From Escherichia phage vB_EcoM_WFL6982: a DNA stretch of 64,000 nucleotides. Below the pieces are notes generated by a model. The model searched no databases. It was not told where the DNA came from and saw only the letters and a program-made list of their open reading frames with translations. Each line of letters starts with the position of its first letter. The first letter of the stretch is position 1. Where the stretch lies: sequence record MK373774.1, one strand, 5' to 3'. Below, in pieces: positions 30,939 through 40,360 of the stretch. The position numbers were made by a program, and so were the translations under genes.

Positions 30939-31271
30939 TCACTTATAAAGACACGGAATAGCTTTATAGTGGCATGTTACGAATTTCTGTTTAATTTCTT
31001 TAGGTTGTTTAAGTCCCAAAGCCACAAATGGATGTGGAACATTTCGAATTTGTCCAACTGGTAGTGGAGTCAAATCACCGACTTCAACAAAACCTTCAGG
31101 AACATCAGGACCTACAGAATGAACTACACATAGTTCAGGAACTTCACCTTGAACACGTTTACCAATCACAAGTCCTGATTCGGTAACTTCTTCATCACCT
31201 GCTTGAGCGGGTTCAGAAACCAGAATGACATATTCACCAACAGCACGAATTGGGAGTTGTACTTCAGACAT
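30939..31271 (-). CDS. 31: Co-chaperonin for GroEL (gp31)
   Basis: 110 aa; [34 protein letters not shown] matches T4 gp31. Confidence 0.92.
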
Positions 31272-31289
31272 CTTATTTCCTTGTTGTTT

Positions 31290-31328
31290 GACGATAGATT
31301 AATAATACCATACTATTCGTAAAGCATA
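31290..31328 (-). promoter_or_regulatory. Middle promoter (MotA box TGCTTTA) upstream of gene 31
   Basis: Minus strand tatgctttacgaatagtatggtattatta. Confidence 0.45.
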
Positions 31329-31637
31329 TTACATAAGAAGCAAACGTTCTACCGGAGTACCATCAACCGAAATTACTTTATCAAGGCGGAAAGAACGCCA
31401 CTGACCTAACTTGGTATCGAATGCTCGAACTGATTCACGAGGTTCAGAACGAACTTCTGATGCCGGATTGTTATTTTCATATTTGACTTCAAGTTCATCG
31501 CGAGAAGCAAACATAGTGCGTACCTCACCGTTAGCCTTTTCAAATACAACACAATGAACGCCTACAGACAGAATAGTTTTAATACGTTCACGAAGAACCA
31601 TAGTTTCTTGTTCAGTTAAAATCATATTATTCACCAC
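31329..31637 (-). CDS. Hypothetical protein (31.1 position)
   Basis: 102 aa ORF between cd and gene 31. Confidence 0.55.
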   Translation of the reverse strand: MVNNMILTEQETMVLRERIKTILSVGVHCVVFEKANGEVRTMFASRDELEVKYENNNPASEVRSEPRESVRAFDTKLGQWRSFRLDKVISVDGTPVERLLLM

Positions 31638-32208
31638 AAAAGTTTCGGATTTGTTCCCAATTCAGAGAACGAAGATTATTACGAGAGTACTGAATTACTT
31701 CAATACCGGCTTGTTTTAGAATGTCTGCCCAATTTTCAGGAGATCGGTCGTATAATTCTGCATATACAACCTTTTTAATACCTGACTGTGTAATAGCTTT
31801 AGTGCAATCAGGACACGGAGAAAGCGTCGTATATAACGTAGCACCTTCAATAGAATTACCTTTACGAGCTGCAAATAAAATTGCATTCAGTTCAGCATGG
31901 ATTTCATTATTAGCAGACCATGCACTATGAGCGGCCCGATGTTCTTTAGCCAAAACAAAATTATCCACCCGTCCAAATGCTGTAGTGCCTTCTTTATGCC
32001 CAGCAACGATGACCGGGCTTGGTTTATTCTTCAACCAACCGTTTTCGGATGCATGTTCGCAACAGTTTGTACCACCTGAAGGAGAGCCATTATAACCTGT
32101 AGAAATAATGCGTCCATCTTTTTCAATGACGGCGCCAACTTTCCATGAACAACATTTTGATTCTTGAGAAATCAGATATGCAATCTGAAGGTATGTGCTA
32201 GCTTTCAT
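31627..32208 (-). CDS. cd: dCMP deaminase
   Basis: 193 aa; zinc-binding deaminase motifs HAE...PCxxC. Confidence 0.92.
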   Translation of the reverse strand: MKASTYLQIAYLISQESKCCSWKVGAVIEKDGRIISTGYNGSPSGGTNCCEHASENGWLKNKPSPVIVAGHKEGTTAFGRVDNFVLAKEHRAAHSAWSANNEIHAELNAILFAARKGNSIEGATLYTTLSPCPDCTKAITQSGIKKVVYAELYDRSPENWADILKQAGIEVIQYSRNNLRSLNWEQIRNFCGE

Positions 32209-33200
32209 TATTGAACCTTATTAATATAAGTTAACAGCTCTTTAGTTTGTTCCCAACTGATGCACGCATCGGTAACGGAAACGCCATAGGACATATTATC
32301 AGAAATTTTTTGATTTCCTTCATGTAGGAACGATTCTATCATAATTCCTTTGACCAAATCATTAGCTGCTAAATTTTTACCAATACCAATTTGATTGCTA
32401 TAATGCCCATCAGCGTTTGCATGGCTACAGTCAACCATTACATAATGATTCAGACCTACTGCCCTTGCTTTGTTAGAAGCTTCTTGAATATCAGAAGAAT
32501 GATAGTTCGGGCCGTTGGTCCCGCCACGCAATACGATATGCGTATTCTGATTACCTTCAGCTTCAACAATGCCTACAGTACCATCGACGTCCATACCCAT
32601 ATACCGATGAGGCCAGGCGGCACTATACATCGCGTCTATAGCTACTTTAATAGAACCATTGGTTGCGTTCTTGAAGCCTACGCACATCGGTAGACCTGAA
32701 GCAATTTCACGATGTGTCTGACTTTCAGTCGTACGGGCGCCAATAGCAACCCATGAGAAAATACCAGAAAGATACTTAATCGTGAATGGGTCTAATACTT
32801 CAGTTGCTAATGGAAGTCCCATACGTAGAAGTTTACGACACAATGTTCGTGCAACTATAAGACCGTGGTTCATATCAAAACTTCCGTCAAGATATGGATC
32901 ATTTACAAGACCTTTCCAACCTACGGTAGTTCGAGGCTTTTCAAAATAAACGCGCATCACTAACAGAACATTAGGAAGACGAGTTTGAAGTTCAGCCAGA
33001 CGTTTGCCGTATTCAACAGCAGCAATAGGGTCATGAATTGAACAAGGACCTACAACGATAAGTTTGCGTGGGTCTTCACCATTCATAATCGAATTAACTT
33101 GTTCGCGATGAGAAGCCACTTGTGATGCGTAAGCTTCCGACAAAGGAATAATCTCAGCCAGTTCTTTTGGAGAAATAAGTTTTCCGACGACAGGTAACAT
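32208..33200 (-). CDS. 3-deoxy-D-arabino-heptulosonate-7-phosphate (DAHP) synthase, class I-alpha (AroG/AroF-like)
   Basis: 330 aa; motif blocks LIVVGPCSIHD, MRVYFEKPRTTVGWKGL, AIGARTTESQTHRE, VMVDCSHANA, IMIESFLHEGNQ, VSVTDACISWE; AGGA RBS; 1-nt coupling to cd. Confidence 0.9.
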   Translation of the reverse strand: MLPVVGKLISPKELAEIIPLSEAYASQVASHREQVNSIMNGEDPRKLIVVGPCSIHDPIAAVEYGKRLAELQTRLPNVLLVMRVYFEKPRTTVGWKGLVNDPYLDGSFDMNHGLIVARTLCRKLLRMGLPLATEVLDPFTIKYLSGIFSWVAIGARTTESQTHREIASGLPMCVGFKNATNGSIKVAIDAMYSAAWPHRYMGMDVDGTVGIVEAEGNQNTHIVLRGGTNGPNYHSSDIQEASNKARAVGLNHYVMVDCSHANADGHYSNQIGIGKNLAANDLVKGIMIESFLHEGNQKISDNMSYGVSVTDACISWEQTKELLTYINKVQ

Positions 33201-33208
33201 AACAATCC

Positions 33209-33334
33209 TTAGGAGATATAAACAGATTCTGATTCAACAATACCTTTAACCGGATTAGACAGGCTAAGTTGGTAGTGCTCAGATTTATGACCATTCTCGA
33301 TAGTAATGAGATAGCTCTCATTATAGTGTTCCAT
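33209..33334 (-). CDS. Hypothetical small protein (start uncertain)
   Basis: ORF-track 33209..33397 overlaps upstream gene; shortened to internal Met. Confidence 0.3.
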   Translation of the reverse strand: MEHYNESYLITIENGHKSEHYQLSLSNPVKGIVESESVYIS

Positions 33335-33557
33335 ATACTCGAGTTGCTTCAACAAGACCATCACTGCATAATTTAAGATTAGTAATTTGGTCACCATCTT
33401 TAGGATTAACGATTATGAGAAAAGAACGTGGAGATTCTTGAATAACTCGTAATGTTGCATCTTGGAAACGTTCAGACACTTTATTGATGAGTGCTTGAGC
33501 AAATTCTTTTACTTTAATCTGAAATTCGTGTACTGTAATTGGGTTTTCACTTAGCAT
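33321..33557 (-). CDS. Hypothetical early protein (cd-pseT ORFan cluster)
   Basis: 78 aa; preceded by early promoter and conserved leader ccaacaaatgaggaaa. Confidence 0.5.
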   Translation of the reverse strand: MLSENPITVHEFQIKVKEFAQALINKVSERFQDATLRVIQESPRSFLIIVNPKDGDQITNLKLCSDGLVEATRVYGTL

Positions 33558-33582
33558 TTCTATTTCCTCATTTGTTGGTAGA

Positions 33583-33616
33583 GTTATAGTATCACAACTC
33601 CACCATGTTGTAAACC
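33583..33616 (-). promoter_or_regulatory. Early promoter with spacer inverted repeat
   Basis: Minus strand gtttacaacatggtggagttgtgatactat. Confidence 0.5.
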
Positions 33617-33617
33617 A

Positions 33618-33893
33618 TTAAATTGCTTTGCATTCAATTTTTTGTGTACCGAAATTGATATCACATTGGATAACTAAATCGCCGTCAAGATCAAATACCA
33701 CGATGACGTGTGCAGACCCAGGGAGAAGAGTAATAGCAATAGAATCTACTTGGTCTGGGAGCAAAGCATTGAGTACATGAGTTACTTGAGCATGAACTCT
33801 GAGTTCGGCTGCATTATCAAGCACTTCAAACATATTATTAGCAATAATCTGACTGAAGACTACCTTTACAATTTCAGAATAAGTTGGGAACAT
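33618..33893 (-). CDS. Hypothetical protein (cd-pseT ORFan cluster)
   Basis: 91 aa ORF. Confidence 0.5.
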   Translation of the reverse strand: MFPTYSEIVKVVFSQIIANNMFEVLDNAAELRVHAQVTHVLNALLPDQVDSIAITLLPGSAHVIVVFDLDGDLVIQCDINFGTQKIECKAI

Positions 33894-33900
33894 AATTACC

Positions 33901-34125
33901 TCAGTGCACAGTATTTACTTTAACTCGAACAACAAATCGCTCGGTTGGTTCACCTACAGGAACAAACTCTACATGATATTCACCTTTGTAACGAGTATTC
34001 AGATCATTACGAATTCCTGCGAGTTTGTTGATTAATGTAGGACTCATATTAAGTCCCACTAGTTTACGAAGCATTTTGTATGCTTCATCTTCGATTTCAT
34101 GATGTTTATCGTACATAGTTTTCAT
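33901..34125 (-). CDS. Hypothetical protein (cd-pseT ORFan cluster)
   Basis: 74 aa ORF. Confidence 0.5.
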   Translation of the reverse strand: MKTMYDKHHEIEDEAYKMLRKLVGLNMSPTLINKLAGIRNDLNTRYKGEYHVEFVPVGEPTERFVVRVKVNTVH

Positions 34126-34297
34126 TTAACCATTCAATTGCCTGGTCGACGTTATCAAATATACCGCCGTCCAAACGTTCTTCATGCTCATAGTCCAGCA
34201 CATCAATACCGAACTGTCCATTTACTAAAGGCCAGGCAACAAACAAATATTCTTTATGCTGTTCGATGGCCTCAATCACTTCATATAATCGTTTCAT
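34106..34297 (-). CDS. Hypothetical acidic protein (cd-pseT ORFan cluster)
   Basis: 63 aa ORF coupled to pseT stop. Confidence 0.45.
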   Translation of the reverse strand: MKRLYEVIEAIEQHKEYLFVAWPLVNGQFGIDVLDYEHEERLDGGIFDNVDQAIEWLNENYVR

Positions 34298-35384
<1,087 letters not shown>

Positions 35385-35385
<1 letters not shown>

Positions 35386-35684
35386 TATTTGATTCCTAAG
35401 AAAGCTTCAAGAATACGAATGTTGAGTTCGCGCCGGTCTTTATTAATTTCAGCAACGTTTTTATTAATTGACGTACTTCTAACGTTTGAAGAAATAAATT
35501 TAATCATATGACTTTTGAGTTGTTGCAAATCCAACCCTTTTTCTTTAGCAGCTTTACGAAGAGCTTTACCTGCTTCATCTAGTGCCTTTGCTGCATCTTT
35601 GTCATAATCTACAAGTGTCATTCCACGGCAGATATCAATATACTCATCAGACCGTTTGATGTAATTCTCTAGTAATGTTTTCAT
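35385..35684 (-). CDS. Hypothetical protein
   Basis: 99 aa ORF preceded by early promoter. Confidence 0.5.
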
Positions 35685-35709
35685 TTAGATTTCCTCAATT
35701 ATCCATAGG

Positions 35710-35743
35710 AGCATTATACTCTGCTCCCGAGAGTTTGTAAACT
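35710..35743 (-). promoter_or_regulatory. Early promoter (-35 TTTACA, 17 nt, -10 TATAAT)
   Basis: Minus strand gtttacaaactctcgggagcagagtataat. Confidence 0.55.
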
Positions 35744-35966
35744 ATTTTACTAAAGATTCAATATACTCATGAAGAGCTTTAGTCGCTACTGCCCACTTAT
35801 TCTGATATTCATTTTTCAGATTAGCACGAGACTGAACTAACAAGCGGTCATTAGTCGGAGGCAAAGATTCTAATCGTTGAATCTGGCGTCCATAAATCAT
35901 AGCCGCCATTTCAGATTCATAGATAAGCCCTTTAATGTATTCATGCTGTTCTTTAGTCATTGGCAT
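35742..35966 (-). CDS. Hypothetical protein
   Basis: 74 aa ORF. Confidence 0.5.
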   Translation of the reverse strand: MPMTKEQHEYIKGLIYESEMAAMIYGRQIQRLESLPPTNDRLLVQSRANLKNEYQNKWAVATKALHEYIESLVK

Positions 35967-36247
35967 TTTTCCTCTTTTAAACCACTACGATAATAACATA
36001 ACATAGTCTTCTGGTCATGTATATATCTTTTTACGTCGTTTAACCAGATACGAAATTCTTGAGAGTCTTCAAATGGCATTCCAACCCACGGATTACCATC
36101 AATAACCTTTACTTGCCATTTCTGGTTGTATTCGGAAATAGGCGTAGGCCATGAAGGATGTAAAGTTTCTTTAGGGCTTACTGGCACATCCTGAGTACAT
36201 CCAACTAGGAGACCAATAGATAATACAGCCACAGTTAATTTAATCAT
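35957..36247 (-). CDS. Outer-membrane spanin lipoprotein (Rz1-like o-spanin)
   Basis: 96 aa; signal peptide plus lipobox LLVGC; adjacent to i-spanin; corresponds to T4 pseT.2 position. Confidence 0.7.
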   Translation of the reverse strand: MIKLTVAVLSIGLLVGCTQDVPVSPKETLHPSWPTPISEYNQKWQVKVIDGNPWVGMPFEDSQEFRIWLNDVKRYIHDQKTMLCYYRSGLKEEKCQ

Positions 36248-36600
36248 TCTGAGAGCTTCCTGAGGTCTTCTGCAAAGGAATCGAAGGACCTGTTGATTTG
36301 TTTTTCGACCAATCCTGGCTTACTTGCCACCACGTTCTTCTTCTTCGAATCCTTACGGAGCTTTTCATTTTCAGCCTTAAGTTGGTCAACTAAAACACGG
36401 TTCTTATAAGTCATTTCTTCGATTGACTGATATTGAATCTTGAAGTCGTCTAATACTTTAGCATTGTTTTTAGCAGTCTCTTTAACAGAAGCCAATTCAG
36501 TATTCAGCGAATCGACTTTATGGTTCAGAAATGCTATTGTTACAGTAGCAACAACTGCAAAAGCTGCCACTACAATATATGATGCATTTACTTTAAGCAT
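36244..36600 (-). CDS. Inner-membrane spanin (Rz-like i-spanin)
   Basis: 118 aa; N-terminal TMD YIVVAAFAVVATVTIAFL, then coiled-coil-like region; corresponds to T4 pseT.3 position. Confidence 0.7.
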   Translation of the reverse strand: MLKVNASYIVVAAFAVVATVTIAFLNHKVDSLNTELASVKETAKNNAKVLDDFKIQYQSIEEMTYKNRVLVDQLKAENEKLRKDSKKKNVVASKPGLVEKQINRSFDSFAEDLRKLSE

Positions 36601-37088
36601 GTTTGAATAATCTCAATGATTTCGTCTCGGGATAATCCATTGATAAGAACTGTTTTAGGCCCGTCAGTTTGGATTTTGTATGATTCAAACAATACACACA
36701 ACTCTTCTGCTGTATGATATGGGCTTGAGATTCCGAGACGGTTGAATTTGTCGGTAAGAGGGTCGCAAATAATATAGAATTTGATACCTGCGATATGTAC
36801 GTTTGGTTGACTAATATTAATGAACACATTAGCGTCATATTTAGTCAAATTGTTTTGAAGAAATTCTACCATAGAATTAACTGCTTCTGGCATCGCTTCG
36901 CGTTTCTCTTCAGCGTATCGGGTTGAATACTCTTTTTGTTTTACTTTCTTTTTAAGATTTTTGGCCAGTGTAACACGTAGGTCAGTAAGATAACCAACTG
37001 GACGTCCTTTCTTAAAGACCCGGATTCCGTCAGTTGTGTCTCCAAAAGCGTTTACGACCATATCGTTAGTAATCAATTGCATATTCAT
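36588..37088 (-). CDS. alc: Alc (inhibitor of host transcription on dC-DNA), by position and size
   Basis: 166 aa from internal ATG with GAGGAG RBS; ORF-track extension covers promoter/leader. Confidence 0.7.
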   Translation of the reverse strand: MNMQLITNDMVVNAFGDTTDGIRVFKKGRPVGYLTDLRVTLAKNLKKKVKQKEYSTRYAEEKREAMPEAVNSMVEFLQNNLTKYDANVFINISQPNVHIAGIKFYIICDPLTDKFNRLGISSPYHTAEELCVLFESYKIQTDGPKTVLINGLSRDEIIEIIQTCLK

Positions 37089-37114
37089 AATTTTCTCCTC
37101 GTGTTGTTGATAAA

Positions 37115-37148
37115 CCCATAGTATCACCATCCTTGGTGTTTGTAAACC
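37115..37148 (-). promoter_or_regulatory. Early promoter with spacer inverted repeat
   Basis: Minus strand gtttacaaacaccaaggatggtgatactatgg. Confidence 0.5.
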
Positions 37149-37149
37149 G

Positions 37150-38283
<1,134 letters not shown>

Positions 38284-38297
38284 TCAGTTAGTTTTTT

Positions 38298-38331
38298 TAA
38301 ATTGTACCACAATCCTTGTGGTATGTAAACT
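38298..38331 (-). promoter_or_regulatory. Early promoter (TTTACA ... TACAAT) with 8-bp spacer palindrome
   Basis: Minus strand gtttacataccacaaggattgtggtacaat. Confidence 0.5.
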
Positions 38332-38740
38332 ACTTTTTCTTATGTTGGATATTCCAAGGCGGGTTGAACTTTTTGATAAAAAGTGGTTCTTCAAGGTCCA
38401 TTGTTGCGATGGTCATTGAACCAAGTTCGTTGGTGACTGAAAGGTCAAAACATTGGCGGGCCCAGAATTCAACCTTTTTGCCTTGCATTAAGGCATCCAA
38501 AATCATAAGTGATTTTCTTGAATCTGAAGTCTGGTCTTTTCGATTTATGGCTGTTCGATAATAGTTAATGCGTTTCTTTAAATTCTTGGTTTTACCAATA
38601 TACACGAGTTCGTCATCTATAGCAATAGCATATATGACATTTTTCTTATTAGGGACATCAACTGTTTTAATTGTTGCATCTTCTAATAGCTCCAATTCTG
38701 TATATTTAATAAAGGAATATTCGGCGGCGATATCTTTCAT
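38330..38740 (-). CDS. denA: Endonuclease II (GIY-YIG family)
   Basis: 136 aa; VIYAIAIDDELVYIGKTKNLKKRINYYR GIY-YIG-type motif. Confidence 0.85.
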   Translation of the reverse strand: MKDIAAEYSFIKYTELELLEDATIKTVDVPNKKNVIYAIAIDDELVYIGKTKNLKKRINYYRTAINRKDQTSDSRKSLMILDALMQGKKVEFWARQCFDLSVTNELGSMTIATMDLEEPLFIKKFNPPWNIQHKKK

Positions 38741-38748
38741 AATAAAGT

Positions 38749-38762
38749 GGGACCGAAGTCCC
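38749..38762 (-). terminator. Hairpin gggacc-gaa-gtccc after nrdB
   Basis: Stem-loop just downstream of nrdB exon 2 stop. Confidence 0.5.
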
Positions 38763-38766
38763 GTCC

Positions 38767-39269
38767 TTAGAAATATTTTTTGTATGAATTGATTACATTT
38801 TGGTCTACATCATTATCAATTTGTGCGACAAGATAAGAACTGATTTCAACTTCCTGAGGAGCTGCTTGAACTAAATCAGAGTTCAGATATTCACGAATCC
38901 AAGGATACGGATGCTTGGTCGGAGCATCCGTAATTGGACATGGCAAACCACACTGTTTCATACGAGACACAGTCAAGTAATCAACAAAAGCACACATACT
39001 CTGCGTATTGATACCTGGACATGTACCATCTTTAAAGAGGTGTGCAGCCCATTCCTTCTCTTGACTATTTACTTCCATAAAAATGTCAACTGCTTCTTGT
39101 TCACATTCTTTAGCAATTTGAACCCACTCATCACCGTCAGTACCAGATTGAAGTTGACGGATAATGTACTGAGTACCCTTGAGATGGAGTTGTTCGTCAC
39201 GAGCAATGAACTTCATAATCTTTGCATTGCCTTCCATAATTTCCATATTCTTGTGGAAGTTAAAGGTAC
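38767..39269 (-). CDS. nrdB: Ribonucleotide reductase small subunit NrdB, exon 2
   Basis: Frame continues TFNFHKNMEIMEGNAKI...; joined to exon 1 gives FYVSFA-C-TFNFHKN, colinear with E. coli R2 FYVSFACSFAFAERELMEG. Confidence 0.85.
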
Positions 39270-40360
39270 CGTTATGTTCGATTGAGCTCGCTAATTCTCA
39301 ACCCGTTCTCTTATGAACTGCTACATATTACTATGCAGACCAGACTATATCACAATCCCAGAGGGATTCTCCCCATTTCGAGTCGCTTGACCCTACGTCC
39401 GAAGACTAGTCGTTGAACCTTGCTTTGCAATTGTCGCCGTGCCATCGTTTATATGTTGATGGTGATAAATCTTTCTTATCACAATATGGACAATTCAATT
39501 GAATTCTATTTGGATTTAATTTACATCTGTCATTATGTTTTAGATAAAATCCAGGACCTTTACCAATGTGACCACAAAAATCACACGTGATTTCTTTTTG
39601 TGCAGGATGGGTCCCGTTCTTAACCATTTCTAATGTTTTTGCTGATGTTCTTTTCTTATGGTCTTCTGATAAGAAATGATGTGAACCGTCATTTACCCGT
39701 TTTGATTGAGTTTCTGACTGCATTTTACCACCGCAAAATACATGAGTACCTTCTTTTATAGCTGCAATATTGCGTTCTTTAACTTTTGCAATATGCTCAG
39801 CTTGTTGAAAATTATGTATACCTAATGCAACTCTATTTAAATTAGATTTACGCTGTATTTCACCGTCTAAAAGATGAAATGTACCATTTTCTATCTTAGA
39901 TTTAATAGAGGCAATATTTTTAGCTCGTACTTCAGGGATATTAAAAATCTGGATTTCTCTAGATTTTGCGGCTTTAGAAGCTAATTCAGAAATTTCTTCA
40001 GGAGAATATTTCATTCTAAGCTTTATAGCATGACAAGCCTGGTAATCTTTTTGAGCTAAATGTATATCATAATGTTCCTGTATAGAAAGGCACATCAAAT
40101 TATCTAAATCATTATTTTCACGGTTACCGTCTTTATGATGGATTTCATATGTTCTTCCATCAGAATCTTTAGGTATAGGTCCGTTAGCATCTATCCAAAT
40201 TTTTCTATAGTTCAATTGTGCATCCTCTTAAAAGTATAATCATATTTATATTATACTAATTAAAGGTGCAAGCAAAACCTTGGCTGCTAGTTTTCCTATA
40301 AAGGACTTTCCAGCAATTAAAGGAGTTTTCGATAAACGTTACCGTTTAAAGGCGCATTTT
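39270..40360 (-). mobile_element. Group I self-splicing intron in nrdB (about 1091 nt) carrying HNH endonuclease ORF
   Basis: Interrupts nrdB; 3' core cgtagggtcaagcgactcgaaa and 3' end gaacataacG resemble T4 td intron P7-P9 and terminal G; 5' exon ends in U. Confidence 0.8.
39406..40215 (-). CDS. I-TevIII: Intron-encoded HNH homing endonuclease (I-TevIII-like, full length)
   Basis: 269 aa; HNH motif EIHHKDGNRENNDLDNLMCLSIQEH; C-terminal Cys-rich zinc-finger-like region; inside nrdB intron. Confidence 0.85.
   Translation of the reverse strand: MNYRKIWIDANGPIPKDSDGRTYEIHHKDGNRENNDLDNLMCLSIQEHYDIHLAQKDYQACHAIKLRMKYSPEEISELASKAAKSREIQIFNIPEVRAKNIASIKSKIENGTFHLLDGEIQRKSNLNRVALGIHNFQQAEHIAKVKERNIAAIKEGTHVFCGGKMQSETQSKRVNDGSHHFLSEDHKKRTSAKTLEMVKNGTHPAQKEITCDFCGHIGKGPGFYLKHNDRCKLNPNRIQLNCPYCDKKDLSPSTYKRWHGDNCKARFND

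Follow-up and report, generated by a model that had tools for sequence, protein, structure and literature searches.

The stretch of DNA analysed here, 64,000 nucleotides (nt) of Escherichia phage vB_EcoM_WFL6982 (MK373774.1), belongs to a T4-like coliphage and is referred to below as the window; all coordinates are those of the whole window. [quoted passage not shown] Over positions 32000-33600 the sequence matches Escherichia phage vB_EcoM_WFK at 100% identity and about 140 deposited genomes at 95% or more, and a 99.5% identical relative, APCEc01, is classified as a Mosigvirus. The gene itself is already known in many phages; the new part is its altered feedback site. [quoted passage not shown]

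The DAHP synthase gene and its start codon

The gene and the elements that define its 5' end are the following.

32208..33200, minus strand: coding sequence of the type I-alpha DAHP synthase, 330 amino acids (aa) plus stop (open reading frame (ORF) list)
33171..33200, minus strand: codons 1-10, MLPVVGKLIS, the shortened N-terminus, which starts at the equivalent of AroG Ile10 (alignment, indel list)
33030..33050, minus strand: GPCSIHD motif, residues 51-57, with Cys53 the metal ligand equivalent to AroG Cys61 (alignment)
33206..33211, minus strand: TAAGGA, in which the stop of an upstream 41-aa ORF overlaps the Shine-Dalgarno sequence AAGGA (direct sequence reading)
33234..33236, minus strand: in-frame TGA that bounds any N-terminal extension, at 12 codons upstream from the ATG (translation)

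By catalytic identity the product is almost certainly a DAHP synthase. It scores 430.6 bits against the whole-protein profile TIGR00034 (aroFGH; cut-off 173.2) and 255 bits against the DAHP synthase family PF00793 (cut-off 25.5). Its best family match is the AroF-type subfamily NF009395 (PRK12755; 456.4 bits, cut-off 343), and it misses the cut-offs of both the AroG equivalog NF006723 (365 bits vs 568) and the AroH subfamily NF009396 (388.8 bits vs 463). Residues 1-330 correspond to positions 8-337 of the 341 in phrog_5045 (E 1.9e-182), a family labelled 'phospho-2-dehydro-3-deoxyheptonate aldolase' in the auxiliary-metabolic-gene category. Among solved structures in the PDB, AroF, AroG and the Neisseria meningitidis enzyme match at E 1e-105 to 1e-92, with AroF 6agm at the top (1e-105). 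The metal ligands Cys61, His268, Glu302 and Asp326 (AroG numbering) are kept in the phage protein together with the KPRT motif, as are Arg92, Lys97, Arg99, Arg165, Lys186 and Arg234, which bind PEP (phosphoenolpyruvate) and E4P (erythrose-4-phosphate). All 13 of the metal, PEP and E4P residues that were checked are invariant in the 25 phage-clade and 98 bacterial sequences aligned below.

An AlphaFold2 model of the phage protein, built on a 54-sequence alignment, is of high confidence (predicted local distance difference test, pLDDT, 90.8; predicted template modelling score, pTM, 0.91) and superposes on the solved type I-alpha enzymes of N. meningitidis, Escherichia coli and Francisella tularensis with template modelling (TM) scores of 0.94-0.96 and root-mean-square deviations of 1.4-1.6 Å. 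Residues 1-10 are modelled as coil and are followed by helices 11-17 and 22-39; the regulatory hairpin is formed by strands 198-203 and 209-214. The model thus has the (beta/alpha)8 barrel, the N-terminal extension and the beta6a/beta6b hairpin of the family, with the first eight residues of the extension alone missing. Because it superposes so closely and both helices and hairpin are present, the architecture is predicted to be kept, with specific regulatory contacts alone gone. The AroG 24/124 tetramer-interface salt-bridge positions vary in the phage and bacterial clades alike.

The original prediction concerned 33038-33200 (-), which encodes residues 1-54, and held that the GPCSIHD cysteine sits at residue 53 against about residue 61 in AroG and that no in-frame ATG lies further upstream. 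Both observations stand. In an alignment with aroG, aroF and aroH from the E. coli K-12 chromosome, Cys53 pairs with AroG Cys61, and the 11 codons between the in-frame TGA and the ATG at 33198-33200 (IRICLYLLRIV) are also devoid of GTG and TTG, which makes this ATG the first possible start of the three kinds past the TGA. An upstream non-ATG start giving a full-length N-terminus is excluded by that TGA, and even a hypothetical rare ATC or ATT start would leave the bacterial N-terminal motif described below unrestored. The upstream ORF ends in a TAA at 33209-33211, 8 nt ahead of the ATG, AAGGA ends 5 nt before it, and the RefSeq start of the APCEc01 homologue is the same ATG. Given the TGA, the lack of any start codon after it, the Shine-Dalgarno sequence and the RefSeq start, the short N-terminus of the phage enzyme is real. 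The alternative that it is an artefact of annotation or start-codon choice, and that the real protein is full length, is vanishingly improbable: the Shine-Dalgarno sequence is correctly spaced, the same start is found in all related genera, and no support for such an artefact was found.

AroG residues 2-9 (NYQNDDLR) have no counterpart in the phage protein, whose Met1-Leu2 falls at AroG Ile10. The deficit of 20 residues relative to AroG is composed of eight at the N-terminus, one at 86, five at 289-293, two at 315-316 and five at the C-terminus, offset by a gain of one at 239. The C-terminus had been thought to be about 12 residues shorter, which overstates the difference; it is shorter by 5 residues vs AroG, 9 vs AroF and 4 vs AroH. 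The idea that the C-terminus was truncated by about 12 residues and that regulation was lost there a second time is rejected, as only 4-9 residues are missing there and the remainder of the deficit lies in internal loops.

The N-terminal motif and the inhibitor pocket

Homologues were sought among 5.8 billion proteins, and the 120 best hits were aligned with AroF, AroG and AroH of E. coli, giving 25 phage-clade and 98 bacterial sequences. The phage clade is sharply set apart in this search, its members having at least 57% identity and lengths of 319-343 aa, with the bacterial proteins all at 55% or below. An independent sample consisted of 80 GTDB species genomes and 10 T4-like IMG/VR loci, with starts assigned by the first-ATG rule.

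The number of residues before the cysteine is 48-52 in the 25 phage-clade proteins and 58-95 in the 98 bacterial ones, without overlap. A motif at AroG positions 6-10, [D/E/N/Q]-[D/N]-[L/I/V]-x-[I/V], occurs in every bacterial sequence of the alignment (98/98) and in no phage-clade sequence (0/25). In the independent sample the bacterial N-terminal pattern was recovered in 78 of 80 GTDB species, the two exceptions being artefacts of the first-ATG rule, and the phage pattern in 10 of 10 T4-like loci. Since the cysteine offsets do not overlap in the alignment and the independent sample splits in the same way, the shortening is neither chance nor a one-off. The central claim of the original prediction, that N-terminal residues used for feedback are missing, holds to this extent: the absent AroG residues 2-9 include the motif that is conserved in bacterial homologues.

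[quoted passage not shown] The AroF variant Asn8Lys of Jossek et al. 2001 is insensitive to Tyr (PMC11843938), and the position falls inside the motif that the phage copies lack. Chains of the N. meningitidis enzyme in a Foldseek table have 344-348 observed residues when inhibitor-bound ('regulated') vs 333-336 when unliganded; the roughly 10 extra ordered residues are suggestive of a terminus that is disordered until the inhibitor binds, the table giving no residue identities. As further background, Asp6 and Asp7 of the partner AroG subunit reportedly contact the bound Phe (Shumilin 2002), and AroF without its first seven residues is reported to be Tyr-insensitive (Jossek 2001).

The remainder of the pocket is changed as well, at the following places.

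32760..32795, minus strand: LDPFTIKYLSGI, residues 136-147, the rewritten inhibitor-site segment (discriminating-column scan, site list, mutant data)
32688..32690, minus strand: Pro171, replacing AroG Ser180 / AroF Ser181 (alignment, published site list)
32559..32609, minus strand: residues 198-214, the beta6a/beta6b hairpin, kept but with Tyr200 (AroG Phe209) and Ala214 (AroG Thr223) (model, alignment)

Every alignment column was scanned for positions at which both clades are near-fixed on different residues. Eight columns qualify: the substitutions P150I, Q151K, D155G, L156I, S180P, F209Y and T223A, and a deletion at 292. The replacements within LDPFTIKYLSGI are Ile141 (AroG Pro150), Lys142 (Gln151), Gly146 (Asp155) and Ile147 (Leu156). 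The published inhibitor site, listed without reference to phages, comprises AroG positions 147, 151, 155, 179, 180, 209, 211, 212 and 214 (PMC9529685), and four of the seven discriminating substitutions fall in it (hypergeometric p = 9e-6 over 328 shared columns). Once published feedback-resistance positions are added, five of the seven lie within 14 positions (p = 1e-6).

Published work assigns functions to these residues. Gln151/152 and Ser180/181 bind the main chain of the inhibitor, and the site is stabilised by a salt bridge in which Asp155/156 takes part (PMC9529685). Feedback-resistant AroG alleles include P150L, S180F and F209A/S, and Q159A and S188F of the Corynebacterium glutamicum enzyme abolish Tyr inhibition in vitro (PMC9529685); AroF P148L and Q152I are also feedback-resistant (PMC11843938). 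P150, S180, F209 and T223 are kept in 80 of 80 GTDB species and Q151 in 79, the exception carrying Glu, and none of about 180 bacterial sequences has Lys151, Pro180 or Tyr209. The phage residue set at these pocket positions is present in all ten T4-like IMG/VR loci. Retention of the inhibitor-site residues would have spoken for ordinary feedback; the alignment instead finds Q151K, D155G, S180P and F209Y fixed in the phage clade, so that relative to the regulated AroF, AroG and AroH the phage site has positions 151, 155, 180 and 209 replaced and the N-terminal motif absent; P150I, at the position of the AroG P150L resistance allele, is likewise fixed in the clade.

Mean pairwise identity in the segment 144-156 is 0.96 among phages, 0.71 among bacteria and 0.39 between phages and bacteria, vs 0.68, 0.63 and 0.55, respectively, for the rest of the barrel. 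Such values are those of a segment rewritten heavily once and frozen since, and the phage-to-phage value of 0.96, set beside 0.68 for the rest of the barrel, argues against neutral decay. A frozen segment would fit a structural need, for instance a dimer interface locked in its active form, or a new ligand.

Probable loss of feedback control and its alternatives

The earlier idea that loss of the N-terminus may make the phage enzyme feedback-insensitive is supported by these comparisons, because the N-terminal motif is missing and pocket residues are replaced at positions known from feedback resistance. The phage enzyme, being apparently competent in catalysis, would convert PEP and E4P to DAHP. 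Bacterial AroF, AroG and AroH bind the inhibitor at the tight-dimer interface, in a pocket to which the partner subunit gives its N-terminal strand and which otherwise consists of the beta3-alpha3 segment 144-156, helix residues 175-180 and the beta6a/beta6b hairpin. Of this arrangement the phage enzyme would keep the barrel, both N-terminal helices and the hairpin, with the N-terminal motif gone; the two side chains reported to hold the inhibitor main chain are swapped (Gln151 to Lys, Ser180 to Pro), the salt-bridge residue Asp155 has become Gly, and further swaps put Ile in place of Pro150, Tyr in place of Phe209 and Ala in place of Thr223. Phe, Tyr and Trp are expected not to inhibit the phage enzyme. 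Pre-replicative phage transcripts, for which the genomic context is considered below, would also allow it to escape the host repression of aroF, aroG and aroH. Carbon flow into chorismate could then be sustained during infection whatever the aromatic amino acid pools, and the purpose may be to supply chorismate while the host isozymes are inhibited or no longer made. Candidate products of that chorismate are aromatic amino acids, quinones and folate via para-aminobenzoate (pABA), the last of which would be relevant to thymidylate and hydroxymethyl-dCMP synthesis; the sequence does not choose among them. What the data show is the identity of the enzyme, its start codon, the conserved catalytic residues, the fold and the substitutions across the clade; the loss of inhibition, the timing of expression and the physiological purpose are what we infer.

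Several points weigh against this reading. D146, P147, L179, G211 and V221 are unchanged or AroF-like in the phage copies, and Pro150 is not universal in regulated enzymes, being Gly in AroH and Val in six bacterial sequences. The model, which covers a monomer, still has the regulatory hairpin and both N-terminal helices. The segment identity of about 96% among phage genera exceeds what a simple loss of function predicts. The literature on phage DAHP synthase biochemistry yielded no enzyme assay, the papers found only noting the gene.

An alternative is that the site has been re-purposed, the remodelled pocket (Lys142, Gly146, Pro171, Tyr200, Ala214 and the shortened partner strand) binding a different effector, perhaps chorismate, prephenate or another acidic intermediate of the pathway, or else a metabolite characteristic of infected cells, with the enzyme regulated by this other signal. 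There is some chance of this, a minor one. Among phage genera whose overall identity is just 57-77%, the residues that were replaced are 96-100% fixed, the pattern in 144-156 is that of a functional shift under purifying selection and not of decay, the hairpin and the N-terminal helices that build the site are retained, and the change of Gln to Lys adds a positive charge just where the inhibitor main chain is bound. However, no result points to any candidate ligand, the loss of the N-terminal motif takes away part of the pocket wall, and the conservation may equally reflect a structural role at the dimer interface together with a link to the active site, as E143 and D146 belong to the same stretch. 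A broader claim, that the DAHP synthases of T4-like phages form a natural subclass with a converted site, which either responds to a different effector or locks the dimer in its active form, is unlikely as things stand; were such a conversion true, the phage would have its own control of shikimate entry, independent of host amino acid pools.

It is more doubtful still that an aromatic amino acid continues to inhibit the enzyme, perhaps more weakly or with altered specificity, the changes being tolerated variation. The best family match is after all the AroF-type subfamily, the AroF-like Pro147 and Gly211 are present, D146, L179 and V221 are kept, and position 150 differs from one regulated enzyme to another, AroH having Gly there and some bacteria Val. 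Yet neither of the side chains reported to hold the inhibitor main chain, Q151 and S180, is kept, the conserved N-terminal motif is missing, one change at any of these places is enough to desensitise the E. coli or C. glutamicum enzymes, and Lys151, Pro180 and Tyr209 are foreign to every one of the roughly 180 bacterial sequences. Insensitivity to Phe, Tyr and Trp remains the likely reading.

Among known systems, E. coli AroF (6AGM/6AGL), AroG and AroH share family and fold with the phage enzyme at 47-54% identity (about 52% for AroF by tblastn), with identical metal, PEP and E4P residues and the same N-terminal helices and beta6a/beta6b hairpin; Pro147 and Gly211 are of the AroF type. The phage enzyme differs from all three in lacking AroG 2-9 with its motif, in having I/K/G/P/Y/A at 150/151/155/180/209/223, in its internal deletions at 86, 289-293 and 315-316, and in a C-terminus 4-9 residues shorter. 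Its closest functional analogues are the engineered or selected feedback-resistant aroG and aroF alleles, known examples of which also include AroG D146N, AroF N8K and C. glutamicum AroF P155L. The fixed phage differences lie where one laboratory change is enough to weaken or abolish inhibition, at 150, 151, 180 and 209 and in the N-terminal motif, but the residues are others (Ile, Lys, Pro, Tyr), and they are combined, natural and conserved across genera. Whereas the laboratory variants Q159A and S188F are unstable or weakly active, the phage combination is evidently maintained by selection. A further parallel is offered by the Pseudomonas aeruginosa enzymes PhzC (PaeDAH7PS PA1901, type IIB) and PA2843, natural DAHP synthases whose inhibition by aromatic amino acids is removed or narrowed because elements outside the barrel are left out or cut short, and which serve a demand decoupled from amino acid pools. 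Unlike the phage enzyme, they are type II proteins with less than 10% identity to type I, they are encoded by chromosomal secondary-metabolism genes, and what they lack is either the helices alpha2a/alpha2b or a portion of an extension of 75 residues.

The phage gene, 98-100% identical to its counterparts in about 140 deposited phage genomes, belongs to phrog_5045, whose members are annotated in Mosigvirus, Kanagawavirus, Winklervirus, Bragavirus and other T4-like phages, and phage DAHP synthase genes have been noted before as auxiliary metabolic genes (PMC11845039; PMC8022965). The annotations and literature that were found record presence only, with regulation, N-terminal shortening and an altered inhibitor site unmentioned. 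If feedback control is indeed lost, phages would have reached naturally what metabolic engineers obtain by mutagenesis at 150, 151, 180 and the N-terminus, and a multi-site combination stable across genera could serve, just as it is, as a robust feedback-resistant enzyme in the production of aromatic compounds. This auxiliary metabolic gene would then do more than add enzyme copies; it would remove host allosteric control at the committed step, and the need of T4-like phages for chorismate would become a testable question. For enzymology, it would provide a natural test of which type I-alpha allosteric elements inhibition needs.

Lineage, other viral copies and neighbouring genes

The order in which the site changed can be glimpsed in a neighbour-joining tree, a rough one without support values. 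At the base of the T4-like clade stands a metagenomic sequence from a T4-like contig (P0022), which retains P150 and has K151, P180 and Y209. Sister to the clade is L108, encoded on a 262-kb IMG/VR contig (IMGVR_UViG_3300028829_003504) that also carries L109; L108 has P150, N151, H155, P180 and Y209, with 58 residues before the cysteine. The residue states and tree positions of P0022 and L108 together suggest a stepwise order in which S180P and F209Y may have come first, the N-terminal motif was then lost, and P150I followed. The homologue of Aeromonas phage HJ05 has A150, H151, P180 and V209 with a long N-terminus, so that the phage-like sequences L108, L109 and HJ05 alike have only part of the signature, with Q151 replaced, P180 present and either Y or V at 209, and keep the long N-terminus.

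A recent bacterial donor was sought and none was found: across 185,579 species genomes the closest match shows 53% identity, and bacterial members of the 5.8-billion-protein set reach at most 55%. Many Nucleocytoviricota GVMAG contigs in IMG/VR (L112-L170) encode type I-alpha homologues of 41-49% identity, several of them as ORFs of 630-680 aa, which suggests fusion with another domain; these giant-virus homologues retain P150, Q151, S180 and F209 together with the N-terminal motif. The proposition that all viral DAHP synthases are deregulated is rejected, as copies from giant-virus metagenome-assembled genomes keep the canonical site and the motif. Because these homologues are canonical, the change is particular to this phage lineage and no general property of viral copies. 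'Acinetobacter phage MD-2021a' was also considered as a source of additional phage examples and set aside, since its contigs look bacterial: on CAKLQH020000056.1 and CAKLQH020000043.1, aroF_1 and aroF_2 stand beside cobS and bioH, with locus tags around 3900. These DAHP synthases look as though they should not be counted as phage genes.

Around the gene, three further elements bear on expression.

31627..32208, minus strand: cd, the dCMP deaminase gene, its ATG overlapping the DAHP synthase stop by 1 nt (ORF list, profile)
33586..33614, minus strand: candidate T4 early-type promoter, TTTACA-17-TACTAT with an upstream TG (consensus scan; weak)
34581..34605, minus strand: MotA-box-like pattern of the middle-promoter type, within pseT and upstream of the gene on its strand (pattern-level)

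The placement between pseT and cd recurs in at least six genera, Mosigvirus (APCEc01), Kanagawavirus, Winklervirus, Marfavirus, Kagamiyamavirus and Bragavirus. Stop and start overlap as TAATG at 32206-32210 (-), with the same arrangement in APCEc01, and the overlap suggests translational coupling of DAHP synthase and cd. The early-type promoter at 33586-33614 precedes the small ORFs ahead of the gene. A scan for sigma-70-type promoters around the gene returned a number of sites not above the shuffled expectation. The T4 late-promoter motif TATAAATA occurs 18 times in the whole window against 7.5 expected, a count that no shuffle reaches, and is absent from the DAHP synthase strand from 30939 to 40242, which takes in 7 kb upstream of the gene. 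For the MotA-box-like pattern TGCTTNA-N10-13-TANNNT, the window has 14 matches where 5.3 are expected. The lack of a late motif, the early-type and MotA-like sites upstream and the overlap with cd suggest that the gene may be expressed before replication, alongside nucleotide-metabolism genes.

The small upstream ORFs were inspected for a companion chorismate mutase or other shikimate gene and none was found, their families being DUF7320, DUF7355 and PHROGs of unknown function; no tRNA genes are present in the window. The 41-aa ORF that ends just before the DAHP synthase start (33212-33334, minus strand) matches only positions 44-76 of the 78 in DUF7320/phrog_1504, and a complete 78-aa member of the same family (33324-33557, minus strand) lies immediately before it. 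The shorter ORF resembles a tandem paralogue cut short, perhaps as a scar of recombination where the inserted gene begins. Inside the DAHP synthase gene, two antisense ORFs of 100 aa (32391-32693, plus strand) and 55 aa (32782-32949, plus strand) are both most likely chance ORFs.

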